Shown piece by piece: positions 1,758-62,897 of a DNA stretch of 64,000 bases (positions within the stretch are counted from its first letter, which is position 1; every line of letters begins with the position of its first letter). The notes beneath the pieces are model-generated. The model was not told the DNA's origin. It made no database searches and worked only from the letters and a program-made list of their open reading frames with translations. The stretch is taken from the sequence record PZ445448.1. One strand, given 5' to 3'. Both the position numbers and the translations under genes were made by a program. This DNA is from a phage.

Positions 1758-2126
1758 ATGGAACAAATGAACGATCAAGAGTCGGTTGCGATGAACGAGC
1801 AAGAACAACCTCAAGAATTTTTCTTAGGGTTAAGTAAAGATCAAGTGTCTCTTTTGCTAGTGCTTTCTTCTTTCATGGGAAGACTTCAGGAGCTCACACA
1901 ACAACCGGAGGCTGAACAATTATTTCAGGCTCTGCGTGAAGAAGAAAAATATCGTCGTTTGGACTATGCCTTAGGTTGGGTAGCTCAACAACGAGATATG
2001 CTGATGGCCCTCTCTGGGACCACAAGTTTTGCAATGGGCCTGTTGGCTCAAGTTCAGGACAAATTAATTCAAGCAGGGTTTGCACACACGGCAAACACTA
2101 ACGAAGAACAAGGAGACAAAGAATGA
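1758..2126 (+). CDS. hypothetical protein
   Basis: ATG after TCGGAGATT SD. Confidence 0.5.
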   Translation: MEQMNDQESVAMNEQEQPQEFFLGLSKDQVSLLLVLSSFMGRLQELTQQPEAEQLFQALREEEKYRRLDYALGWVAQQRDMLMALSGTTSFAMGLLAQVQDKLIQAGFAHTANTNEEQGDKE

Positions 2127-3349
2127 GCGTTATTCAACAATTCGCTAACCCGATGAATCCGCGTGAAACTGTTTTACTGGCTCACGGCATGATTAAACGC
2201 GTCAGCATCAAGCCTATCAAAGGTGCTGATCCTACAACAGGTATTAAAACCACTGTGTGGCAAGGTAAGAAAATTGAATCCAGCCACACCATCTCTTTAC
2301 TGATTTCTGAACTGGATTCCTCTGATAACCTACTTCAAGGTGGTGAAGAAGTTTGGATCAGTATGGGCGATAAGCTGCTTAAACCGGGTCATCAAGACTC
2401 TGTCTCTGTTAAAATTGATGACAAGTGGGAAACCGTAACGCCAGGATGGATCGTAAATATCCCTTTGAAGGCAAACGAGCATAACGGTAAGACCTACTAC
2501 AAAGGCTCACTGGCTAAGATGGTTAAGCTGGGTGCAGGAGAGGCTCCAGCAGCGACTCAGCAGCAAAAACAGCAACAAGGTGCACAATCACAAGGCCAGA
2601 AGCAGAAACCTCAGCAGAATGCCAATCAGGACGTTTTACGCATCTATGGTGATGTGACTCAGATTGTTGGCAACGTGGTTACTGTAAATGATCACAAGAT
2701 TGGCGAAGGTGCTATGGTTGTAACTGATGAGCAGCTTAAAGACCTGGTGGTAGGTGGTCGTGTTGCAGCCATTGTGGACAAAGACACCGGAAACATTATC
2801 AGTGGTTTCAAAGCCTACCCACCTAAGGCAGAGAACGGCACTCAAGGCCCTGGTGGCAAGCGTAAATCCTCTTACGACCCTATTGGTGTGGAGACGGGGC
2901 ATAGCATCAATGCGTTGCAGATCATCCTGGATCGTGGGTTTAAGGTAGACGACCCACTAGGCGTGGCTAAAACACTGCACGTAGTCACCATCGAGCTTAA
3001 GAAAGAGTATGCTCAAGCCACCAACCGAACTGAAGATGAAGTAGGTGCCAGTGTCGGTAATGCGGTGTTGAACGCTTGTCGCCGTATTGACAAGAAAACG
3101 AAAGTTGATGATTTTGCAGCGGCAATTACTGCAGAAGCAAAAGATGTCTTGACTAATCTGGCTGAGCCGTTGTACGATTGGATCAAGAACGGTGCTGGGT
3201 CAACTGACCATCAAGAACCTCAGGCTGCCAAACAGGAAGCAGCTCCACAGCAAAACACTGTAGACGCTCCTCCTGTAAATGATGGGGAAGATGACCCGAT
3301 GGATCAGAATCCAGCACAGTATGACTTCTGTGATGACATACCGTTTTAA
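2123..3349 (+). CDS. SSB-like protein with Gln-rich linker and C-terminal YDFCDDIPF tail
   Basis: C-terminus DFCDDIPF matches the conserved acidic tip of bacterial SSB (DFDDDIPF); ATGA overlap with upstream gene. Confidence 0.55.
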   Translation: MSVIQQFANPMNPRETVLLAHGMIKRVSIKPIKGADPTTGIKTTVWQGKKIESSHTISLLISELDSSDNLLQGGEEVWISMGDKLLKPGHQDSVSVKIDDKWETVTPGWIVNIPLKANEHNGKTYYKGSLAKMVKLGAGEAPAATQQQKQQQGAQSQGQKQKPQQNANQDVLRIYGDVTQIVGNVVTVNDHKIGEGAMVVTDEQLKDLVVGGRVAAIVDKDTGNIISGFKAYPPKAENGTQGPGGKRKSSYDPIGVETGHSINALQIILDRGFKVDDPLGVAKTLHVVTIELKKEYAQATNRTEDEVGASVGNAVLNACRRIDKKTKVDDFAAAITAEAKDVLTNLAEPLYDWIKNGAGSTDHQEPQAAKQEAAPQQNTVDAPPVNDGEDDPMDQNPAQYDFCDDIPF

Positions 3350-3363
3350 CAATTAGTTAACAT

Positions 3364-3393
3364 AGCCCTGCCCGAAAGGGTGGGGCATTTTTG
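3364..3393 (+). terminator. intrinsic terminator (GC stem, GAAA loop, T-run)
   Basis: GCCCTGCCC GAAA GGGTGGGGC followed by ATTTTT. Confidence 0.6.
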
Positions 3394-3411
3394 TATAAGG
3401 AGATCTGAAAA

Positions 3412-18489: not shown

Positions 18490-20950
18490 GCTCTTCCTCC
18501 TACCACAAACGGCCCAGCCTGGCAAGTGGAATAATTGACTAGCCATCAATCCCACACACTGTACAAATATACATGGAAAATAACTATTGCATAATTTTTC
18601 ATTGTGTGGTAGCAGGTCCATTTTTACCCGTTTTCTCTCTCAAAATTGCACGTAATGCCGCTATTGCACAAAATTTAACCTGATGCACATCTTCAATATC
18701 TTGTCAACAACTAAAAATCTTTATAAGTCATACACTTACACACTCACAAAAGCGTGTTCTACGTGAAAAATCGAGTATAACTATAGCCGCCAGATCTCAG
18801 AATTTACGTACGCTCACCATTCTATAGTCTGCTAAGTATTTATTCCAACCATGGAATAACGGAATAGTCAATACCTGCATAAAATAATTATTCGTGTAAA
18901 CTGCATAACATAAATCAGCTCAGGTGTCAACATTTTTCGTAAACAGTCCGAAATTGTCACGGTGAGTTATCATAAACAGAGAAATATTTAGTCGTCTAAT
19001 GTTTACTGTACATTACTATACTGACTGGAATCATTAGATGACTAAGAGAAAGATAAGAAATAATTAACAATACAATTATTTTATCTGTAACAATAAGGCA
19101 ACTATGCAAACGAATGGCATGGCGCGACGGAGTCGCGACATAATATAAAAGCAGTAACCATCACCCCCGTGATAGTTTGTCTGCAAACTATTAATCAGAT
19201 CATAGTTGCCTTGTATTTAGTTAATCATGACATAACAAGCAAGGCAACTATAGATCTTCTAATAGTTGCCCTGCTTTTATATTATGTCATAGAAACACCC
19301 GAAGGGGTGACCAAAGGTCACCTGGCATGGCCAGTGAAAGATTATTAACTTGTTAATTGTTAACTTGCTAATTGTTTTCATGCAAACGAATGTCATGGCT
19401 TATCCTATCTGTGTAAACAGTCAAGGTGTAAACTATCCAGGCGTAAACAATCTATACGTGAACAGTGAAACATGAAATAATAACAGTCGTTATTGTGTCG
19501 AAAGTGTATAAGGTGTCATAGTATGTCAGACAAGTTTTTCTCCTCTTTGTCAAGTGCTGCATGAAAAATTTACAAGCTTGTATGGTAGCATTTTTGCTGC
19601 CCTGTTTACATTCAGTTGTGTATGTATAACCCTTGTTGTGTGGGCGTTTAGACGTCTAGACGGTTGGAAGTCCGCAGGTTAATATCTAATCTATTGGCTG
19701 CTAACTATATCCCACACAAATAGTAAGAAATATAATTGTTATGTGCGTAAACAGTAACTCATGTTATCAATCCCTGTATGTATCGCCAGTGGTGCGCATA
19801 ATGGGTATTATGTTAAATTGCCCGTAATGATAACTATTCTCACAATGATAGGTATTCTCATTCACTCCCACAAGATAGGTTGCAAATGTTGTGCCACTGT
19901 GTGAACGGCCTCACCTATTAATTTGCCTCACTGCCTCGATATTTGAGAATTGTTATAAGAATGAGAAGTATTCCCATTTCGTCCGCCTGGCAGCACTCCA
20001 GTCGCTACCGCTCATGACAGGGCAGAACTAGACCCTCTTCAGATATTTCTGGCTGACTCTTCAGGCCTGTGTGGGAAAAGCCAACCTCTCCGGCGGCGGG
20101 GAGGGGTTTGTCAGGAAAATTGCAGGTCAATTAAAAAATTTACGTGGTATATGAAGCGCTCTTCAGGTAAGGCATGTATTATGGGATGAAACCCTCTTCA
20201 GGCAATGATATTTGTGGGTGTGATATTTGCTGGAAAGCCAGATATGACGGGACTCCCGGCGGGGCAGGGGTAGTACAGACAGGGGAAATATGGAGGATGT
20301 AGTTGGGGGAGTTGATCAAACAGGTAGAGTATGGAATATGTTACAAGTATGTTAAATATGGAGGGTGGATATCTGTAGGATTTATGTGTAAAATCAAAGA
20401 CTTAAGTGGTGTTGTGGTATTTTCTATAAATAATTCAAGTTTAATAGGTAATATTTGTCTCTATCCGCTTTGTGTGGTAAACAAATTCAGATGGTGTTGG
20501 TTTACAAGTGTATACATAATATACAAATTAAAGATACAAGAAACCCCCCTCCCCCTTCGGCTACCATTCACCTTTTCCTCTGACTGGTACTTAAACACTT
20601 ATTCAGACTCTTCAGGTTATCACCCATATATCATATGGCAGTGACTGGTGTCCTCCGGCCCCTCTTTCGTCACCCGTCCGCTTCGCCATGCTAATGCCAT
20701 AGCCAATGGTTCGGTTGTTCACCCTGTTCACTCAGGTGTATCTCCATACCCCTTCAAACCGAAGAGAACAGAAAACCCGAATTACTCGGTAAAAGAAAAG
20801 AGAAGAACTTAATTTTATCAGGATAGGCAAGAATGTCAAGGCATGACTGCTCACTAAACAAGCAAACAGTCATGTGTGGGAGGTAAGTGATTGTGGTGGT
20901 AGGAAATTTAGTTGAAAGATGTGTTATAGGTGCTCCCAGCACTTTAGCCG
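18490..20950. repeat. 2.4-kb gene-free repeat-dense region (GTAAACAG iterons, AAGGCAACTAT sites, CTCTTCAGG repeats)
   Basis: no ORF with SD on either strand; multiple short repeat families. Confidence 0.6.
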
Positions 20951-62084: not shown

Positions 62085-62159
62085 GCCCTGTTAGCTTAGT
62101 GGATAAAGCAGCGGCCTTCTAAGCCGTTGACACTGGTTCGAGTCCAGTACGGGGTGCCA
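62085..62159 (+). tRNA. tRNA-Arg (anticodon TCT)
   Basis: cloverleaf folded by hand: acceptor GCCCTGT/ACGGGGT, anticodon loop CTTCTAA, T-loop TTCGAGT, encoded CCA. Confidence 0.75.
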
Positions 62160-62163
62160 AATT

Positions 62164-62250
62164 GGGGAGTTATCCCGTAGAGGTAGCGGTGTAGACTGTA
62201 AATCTATTGTCATTGCGACTCGGGTGGTTCGACTCCACCACTCCCCACCA
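62164..62250 (+). tRNA. tRNA-Tyr (anticodon GTA), long variable arm
   Basis: acceptor GGGGAGT/ACTCCCC, anticodon loop CTGTAAA, T-loop TTCGACT, CCA. Confidence 0.7.
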
Positions 62251-62364
62251 AATTTATATTTTTAGATGCATAAATAATACAGATAATGGCATTGATATTT
62301 ATCGTCGTTTATACTAGTCACTAACTGCTCGAAAATCAGTGTCATTATCAGTATAATTTATAAA

Positions 62365-62455
62365 GGAGGGTAGGGAGCAATGGTGCTCAAGCGGTCTTGA
62401 AAACCGTCCCGTTGAGGATGACTCGATGATGGTTCGATTCCATTACTCTCCGCCA
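62365..62455 (+). tRNA. tRNA-Ser (anticodon TGA), long variable arm
   Basis: acceptor GGAGGGT/ACTCTCC, anticodon loop CTTGAAA, T-loop TTCGATT, CCA. Confidence 0.65.
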
Positions 62456-62553
62456 CATTGTTGACCTTGTAATTAAGCGAAAGCCGGAAGCAGAACCGGA
62501 TTATCAAATGTTACAGTCGTCATCGCCGACTAGCAACATGGTCAACATACTGA

Positions 62554-62650
62554 GCTAGGTAAGCCCTTTGGCAAGGGCGAGGATTTTTAATCCTGAAAAT
62601 AGACGAGGTAGTCGTTGAATACATAGGTGGTTCGATTCCATCACCTAGCA
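62554..62650 (+). ncRNA. 97-nt tRNA-like element with irregular anticodon region
   Basis: perfect 7-bp acceptor GCTAGGT/ACCTAGC, D-arm, T-loop TTCGATT, but about 10-24 nt too long and no clean anticodon stem. Confidence 0.35.
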
Positions 62651-62657
62651 CCTTTTT

Positions 62658-62733
62658 GCTGATGTAGCACAATCGGTAGTGCAATTGATTTGTAATCAAT
62701 AGGTTGTAGGTTCAAGTCCTGCCATCAGCACCA
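62658..62733 (+). tRNA. tRNA-Thr (anticodon TGT)
   Basis: acceptor GCTGATG/CATCAGC, anticodon stem ATTGA/TCAAT loop TTTGTAA, CCA. Confidence 0.8.
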
Positions 62734-62734
62734 A

Positions 62735-62809
62735 GGCCCTGTAGCTGGAAGGTTCAAGCAAGCGACTCATAATCGCCAGACGGTGGTTCAATTCCACCCA
62801 GGGCCACCA
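62735..62809 (+). tRNA. tRNA-Met or Ile2 (anticodon CAT), elongator type
   Basis: acceptor GGCCCTG/CAGGGCC with G1-C72, anticodon loop CTCATAA, CCA. Confidence 0.7.
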
Positions 62810-62820
62810 AATAGTAAATA

Positions 62821-62897
62821 CTCCGCGTAGCTCAGCTTGGTAGAGCGCCTGATTTGGGATCAGGAGGTCGAGTGTTCGAATCACTCCGTGGAGACCA
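62821..62897 (+). tRNA. tRNA-Pro (anticodon TGG)
   Basis: D-arm GCTCAGCTTGGTAGAGC, anticodon stem CCTGA/TCAGG loop TTTGGGA, T-loop TTCGAAT, CCA. Confidence 0.8.

Follow-up and report, generated by a model that had tools for sequence, protein, structure and literature searches.

[quoted passage not shown] We assign the window to a Vequintavirus (rV5-like) phage of E. coli. The gene is matched by 115 phage records at 90–99% DNA identity, almost all of them from Vequintavirus (rV5-like) E. coli myoviruses, and is labelled "hypothetical protein" in every one. The protein matches PHROG 4477 ("unknown function") over residues 1-408 with an E value of 5e-173. A word-indexed search gave 54 relatives, and a profile search of 1.84 billion cluster representatives (clustering at 50%) gave 226, 152 of them at E <1e-10. 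Many family members are short (260–300 aa), and the layout shared by the family is an N-terminal beta-domain followed by a helical domain and then an acidic tail. Some annotators of phAPEC8-like and Justusliebigvirus phages call the homologue "single-stranded DNA-binding protein", a label that is probably owed to the tail because the NCBIfam SSB models match the tail only.

According to the ORF listing and the translation of the window, the gene is a single ORF of 408 codons that starts with an ATG and is orthologous to rV5 gp209 and Bas52_0087. A Shine-Dalgarno sequence AGGAG can be read at 2111..2115 (+), 7 nt before the ATG. The C-terminus of the protein reads ...NPAQYDFCDDIPF and is followed by a TAA stop codon at 3347-3349; as the stop comes directly after the tip, Phe408 has a free carboxylate. 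Directly 3' of the gene a terminator scan found a hairpin with a T-run that looks like an intrinsic terminator (3365..3396, +; strong hairpin at 3365-3386). The upstream ORF 1758..2126 ends with a TGA that shares bases with the ATG at 2123 (ATGA), an arrangement suggestive of translational coupling between the two genes. This upstream ORF (+) encodes an acidic, Q-rich protein of 122 aa, the orthologue of rV5 gp210 (PHROG 7310, unknown function), and is apparently not kept beside distant homologues of the SSB-like gene.

At least a dozen genome-maintenance proteins are recruited by the SSB hub via its C-terminal tip, and the SSB-Ct pockets contact the carboxylate of the terminal Phe. A first-pass annotation of the window had described the 408-aa protein at 2123-3349, had matched its last residues YDFCDDIPF to the conserved tail DFDDDIPF and had seen no resemblance of its N-terminal domain and Q-rich linker to E. 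coli SSB. We found the same ORF and tail by translation, and the other two observations were borne out as well, the match by family-wide conservation and the hhalign alignment of the tail, and the dissimilarity by the limitation of all sequence likeness to the tail. When all six frames of the 64-kb window are translated, the pattern [DE][DE][IVL]PF occurs a single time, namely at the C-terminus of the SSB-like protein. The protein ends with -PF in 145 of the 184 family members with at least 230 aa and with -IPF in 98 of them; 19 of the 184 carry the tail DFDDDIPF and eight PPMDFDDDIPF, which equals the C-terminus of E. coli SSB, and in four of these eight the match extends to EPPMDFDDDIPF. Looser tails (...DDLPF, ...EDVPF, ...DAPW, ...GLDF) are present in many members. 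Since even homologues with no more than about 20–30% identity keep the tail, we regard the tip at this C-terminus as not being due to chance. Cys403 stands where 80% of the family has an Asp and is a lineage variant common to rV5 itself. The protein thus shows the disordered linker and the acidic tip with a free carboxylate that are expected of a bacterial SSB, with a Cys at one of the acidic positions. In an alignment of the family profile with E. coli SSB only the last 13 columns align (hhalign probability 93%), which was also seen with BLASTP and in a PDB profile search.

For the architecture of the protein AlphaFold2 models, both full length and domain-only, were built with the family alignment. 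Residues 1-138 (2123..2536, +) are modelled as an all-beta domain with a pLDDT of about 80–88, which is the predicted OB-fold domain 1 and the predicted ssDNA-binding domain. It is followed by a Q-rich linker (residues 141-169; 2543..2629, +), disordered in the model (pLDDT <50) and differing in length among close homologues, in which the Q-rich stretch QQQKQQQGAQSQGQKQKPQQNANQ occupies residues 146-169. Residues 171-232 (2633..2818, +) form a second small beta-barrel with a pLDDT of ~80, and the order of its secondary structure elements, beta1-beta2-beta3-helix-beta4-beta5, is OB-like. The best-conserved part of the family is a four-helix domain (residues 253-355; 2879..3187, +) with a pLDDT of 94–98 in the domain-only model; D252 (codon 2876-2878) lies directly before its first helix and Y351 (codon 3173-3175) inside it. 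Residues 359-408 are disordered in the full-length model (pLDDT <50) and comprise a linker that is acidic and rich in P, Q and E by composition (residues 359-400; 3197..3322, +) and the tip DFCDDIPF (residues 401-408; 3323..3346, +), the counterpart of the E. coli SSB-Ct DFDDDIPF.

The second barrel is confined to the long family members of about 400 aa; it is missing in P0051–P0054 and most of the short members, and its mean occupancy is 50/145. An origin of this barrel by internal duplication of OB domain 1 was considered and rejected, as hhalign gave a probability of 0.1% and no sequence relation between the two. The residues H55, W78, W102, H/Y120, K123 and Y126 are conserved in OB domain 1 over 145 members; surfaces of OB folds that bind ssDNA typically employ aromatic and basic residues. 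A search of BFVD gave weak matches to DUF2815 and 'phage ssDNA-binding' proteins.

RecO was also found among the structural matches of the predicted OB fold. A RecO-like layout would fit an accessory ssDNA-binding mediator, acting as recombination mediator or in annealing, helicase loading or restart, with the host SSB working at the phage fork. We regard such a role as quite improbable, as the matches to RecO cover the OB part only (about 80 residues) and are ranked under many SSBs, and no relative of the four-helix domain was found in the PDB. In addition, a RecO-like mediator combines the OB fold with the RecO helical and zinc-binding domains, a combination that is not found here, and RecO-type mediators bind the SSB tip and do not carry one, whereas an acidic linker with a tip is a hallmark of SSBs.

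Outside its tail the protein can not be connected to SSBs by sequence. Pfam gave no match for the window protein or any of the 145 family members. The NCBIfam models PRK09010 and TIGR00621 hit only the last 30–70 residues of some homologues, far under the cut-off, and the N-terminal domain is not recognised by the PF00436, TIGR00621 and PRK09010 models as that of a bacterial SSB would be. Comparison of the family OB domain 1 with the canonical SSB OB alignment by hhalign resulted in a probability of 0.3%. A homology of the body to known families was rejected, because Pfam, NCBIfam and phmmer/hmmsearch searches of the PDB gave nothing or the tail only. Compared to E. coli SSB (PF00436 / TIGR00621), the window protein is without sequence homology outside the tail, has 408 instead of 178 aa with an additional beta-barrel and a four-helix domain, and carries its Q-rich linker between the two beta-domains and not ahead of the tip. 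The canonical SSBs of temperate phages and plasmids are likewise SSBs with a host-like tail that recruits partners, as described for the temperate phage HK620, where the SSB tail NDYPPF recruits Sak4, but these HK620-type SSBs are true PF00436 homologues, in contrast to the window protein.

In the genomes of rV5-like phages the gene follows a T7-like family-A DNA polymerase gene at a distance of about 3 kb, and ahead of the polymerase come a primase-helicase and another helicase, all of them just beyond the beginning of the window; in relatives the replisome genes (polymerase, primase-helicase) are found 3–8 kb upstream. The arrangement of primase-helicase and PolA, then a few small genes and the SSB-like gene, is kept in the rV5-likes and recurs in two distant homologues (27–33% identity) on unrelated contigs. 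The window protein shows the layout of its family, with a predicted OB fold, a predicted four-helix domain, the -PF tail and the position downstream of primase-helicase and PolA (synteny in L001, L005, L006 and L007). On one contig with a distant homologue, a T7 gp5.9-like protein (Pfam Phage_T7_Gp5_9; L005:9837-10001) is encoded immediately upstream, and its gene, as annotated, ends on the base (10001) with which the SSB-like gene begins; T7 gp5.9 is a RecBCD inhibitor.

We also looked for another SSB of the phage. The RefSeq record of rV5 has no gene annotated as SSB, phmmer searches with E. coli SSB and T7 gp2.5 found nothing in rV5 or the window, and of 30 rV5 hypothetical proteins of SSB size from outside the virion module not one matches an SSB PHROG. 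A second SSB in the phage was rejected, as none is present in the rV5 annotation or in the PHROG scans of these 30 proteins.

A divergent phage SSB had been one of the readings offered by the first-pass annotation, with the prediction of an OB fold as a check. The fold is indeed predicted for the N-terminal domain, with SSBs as its best PDB matches, so that at the level of the predicted model the SSB-resembling OB fold of a bacterial SSB is present; the tail of the family, the synteny and the lack of any other SSB candidate in rV5 support this reading too. We propose that OB domain 1, helped in this lineage by the second barrel, would coat the ssDNA of a T7-like replisome, and we infer the ssDNA binding from the fold, the conserved residues, the synteny and the lack of an alternative SSB. 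The four-helix domain may provide self-association, cooperativity or a surface for partners, for which the positions of the escape mutations described below speak. The disordered acidic linker of ~45 residues would present DFCDDIPF, a tip that copies the host SSB-Ct and by which the ssDNA-bound protein could dock on the host proteins ExoI/SbcB, RecQ, PriA, chi, RecO and others and possibly also, in the manner of T7 gp2.5, on the phage polymerase.

The tip occurs in two natural forms. In rV5 gp209 there is no stop after IPF and the ORF runs on with APVGLQYGKSRIHAL (L004:21981-22030, minus strand of the record), and in rV5 and many relatives (also L008:7170-7218 and L010–L052) ...DDIPF is followed by 14–15 residues consisting of 'APIGLQY' and a hydrophobic end. 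The phages DrSchubert and EmilHeitz likewise have a capped tip. This cap is absent from the window with its stop at 3347-3349. The free-tip peptide of the window is PAQYDFCDDIPF and that of Bas52 ...SFDDDIPF, and the capped form reads ...DDIPFAPVGLQYGKSRIHAL. In rV5 the HNH homing-endonuclease gene rv5_gp208 is located exactly between the IPF codon and the terminator (window 3347-3411 compared to L004:21386-22009), with the ATG of the endonuclease inside the extension ('caa tAT Ggc'). A probe for the endonuclease matches 52 rV5-like records, 32 of them at full length, and the window represents the empty, free-tip allele. Our first reading of the extension as a mere by-product of the homing endonuclease was rejected as the full explanation, because one lineage (...DEDIPFSPVGLQYGKHRVYIL, then the terminator) keeps the extension without the endonuclease and because of canonical SSBs in IMG/VR. 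There a scan for IPF-AP[IV]GLQY resulted in 43 loci, which comprise 40 different DNA versions and vary freely at synonymous positions, and about 25 of the 43 are canonical SSBs with the ending ...DFDDDIPF-APIGLQY[PR]ALL[NM]C[MI] and unrelated downstream genes. As the cap is found on many canonical phage SSBs with free synonymous variation, it appears to be selected at the protein level. A literature search for 'GLQY' and SSB found no description of it. Since the SSB-Ct pockets engage the carboxylate of the terminal Phe (compare the modelled contact between carboxylate and R452 in DnaG), the cap should change the binding of the tip. One might speculate that an independently evolved SSB family acquired the host SSB-Ct and that phages switch between a free and a capped tip as an undescribed device to control the access of host SSB-interacting proteins or defence sensors, an idea to which we give only a small chance. 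It speaks against an SSB with a docking tip that natural alleles with a non-C-terminal tip are common.

The closest known system is Bas52_0087 (QXV84166.1) from Escherichia phage RudolfGeigy (Bas52, Vequintavirus, MZ501102), a protein of equal length and at the same genomic position that is identical to the window protein in 403 of 408 residues (99%). Two of the five substitutions are located in or adjoin the tip, which reads YSFDDDIPF in Bas52 and YDFCDDIPF in the window. A literature search for rV5/Vequintavirus and SSB found no description of the protein other than a preprint on the DRT10 defence from 30 April 2026. Bas52 mutants that escape the DRT10/UG17 reverse-transcriptase defence carry the single substitutions D252V or Y351C in Bas52_0087, which was named 'phage-encoded SSB-like protein' and identified as the DRT10/UG17 trigger; for its structure Phold gave an "SSB-like fold" and AlphaFold2 two OB folds with a disordered C-terminus, and the authors compared its tip FDDDIPF with the C-tip of E. 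coli SSB (bioRxiv 10.64898/2026.04.29.721553). Both the observation and its SSB-like interpretation have thus already been published for a 99%-identical protein and are not new. Both affected residues, D252 and Y351, are found in the window protein as well. Beyond the two OB folds and the disordered C-terminus of the preprint, our models add a separate and confident four-helix domain at 253-355, and it is this predicted domain, the conserved core of a large family, that contains Y351 and directly follows D252. New is also that the middle barrel, as judged from its distribution in the family, is lineage-specific and that no sequence homology to SSBs can be detected in the body.

The same work bears on the idea of a tail mimic, in which the protein displays the SSB-Ct in many copies and competes with host SSB for ExoI, RecQ, RecJ, PriA and others, so that host nucleases and repair are disarmed or diverted, with coating of ssDNA not being the main job of the protein. 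An interference with SbcB/ExoI by competition or displacement has been proposed for Bas52_0087, and SbcB dosage modulates the DRT10 restriction of Bas52 (bioRxiv 10.64898/2026.04.29.721553). This idea would also agree with a tip (nearly) identical to that of the host, in some members up to the extended match given above, and with a body that has no sequence relation to SSBs. We nevertheless find such a decoy distinctly improbable, since it would need neither OB fold(s) with conserved aromatic residues nor a fixed synteny with the replisome, since Bas52_0087 expressed alone is not toxic (and not sufficient to trigger DRT10), unlike the expectation for a strong titration of the SSB interactome (bioRxiv 10.64898/2026.04.29.721553), and since alleles with a capped tip are common in viable phages. 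Moreover, the searches of rV5 and the window found no other SSB that the phage could use besides that of the host.

With an SSB of the phage itself as the preferred reading, the partner of the tip has to be considered, and here T7 offers a comparison. T7 gp4 carries an acidic tail ending in Phe, and the acidic tail of T7 gp2.5, which also ends in Phe, makes contact with the phage polymerase and helicase. Like gp2.5, the window protein combines a predicted OB fold with an acidic, Phe-ended tail in a phage with a family-A polymerase and a primase-helicase, so that at the level of sequence and gene content the acidic tail with a terminal aromatic residue and the T7-like PolA and primase-helicase of a gp2.5-type system are all found. 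The primase-helicase, which is encoded outside the window (Bas59 L001:3896-5974; equivalent of rV5 gp225 in L004), ends with ...PGFEDDETPF, and more distant relatives of it end with ...NKDF and ...EGSY. Like that of T7 gp4, the tail of the rV5 primase-helicase is acidic and Phe-ended; it resembles the tip of the SSB-like protein, and the two would parallel the T7 gp4/gp2.5 pair. It could therefore be that the tip serves phage-internal contacts only, to the polymerase, the primase-helicase or by folding back on its own OB domain as in T7 gp2.5, and that its likeness to the host tip reflects convergence and no hijacking, an explanation that differs from the preferred one only in the partner of the tip. 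The T7-like replisome with PolA and primase-helicase, the ending ...EDDETPF of the latter, the binding properties of the T7 tail and the looser tails of many family members are in line with it. We still consider it rather unlikely, as the members from enterobacterial phages match the host tail over 8–12 residues including the non-acidic PPM/EPPM, which goes beyond a generic need for acidic residues, and as the genetic link of Bas52_0087 to SbcB/ExoI, a classical SSB-Ct partner, points to the host (bioRxiv 10.64898/2026.04.29.721553).

Two further regions of the window were noted. An AT-rich and ORF-poor stretch at about 18600-20300, where the gene orientation switches, is the counterpart of the 2.6 kb that are left unannotated in rV5 between rv5_gp158 and gp159. 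In this stretch ATAGTTGCC recurs in the manner of iterons and an 18-nt sequence is repeated perfectly in inverted orientation (19137-19154 / 19271-19288), so that it may act as an origin of replication or in regulation. A tRNA cluster at 62085-62897 (+) encodes tRNAs for Arg, Tyr, Ser, Thr, Met and Pro, and ARAGORN additionally reported a 99-nt tRNA-like element with a 4-base anticodon loop ('tRNA-???') at 62554-62652, in a stretch that is unannotated in rV5.

With respect to annotation, what is listed as "hypothetical protein" in over 100 rV5-like phages, and PHROG 4477 with it, can now be named a putative SSB. Its 99%-identical counterpart in Bas52 has been shown genetically to be what DRT10 senses (bioRxiv 10.64898/2026.04.29.721553). 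The natural alleles with free and capped tips, existing side by side, offer a test case for functions that require a free C-terminal Phe. Furthermore, an SSB that joins an unrelated body to the tip of its host would mean that a virus equipped with a replisome of its own is still able to connect to the SSB hub of the host or to compete for it.
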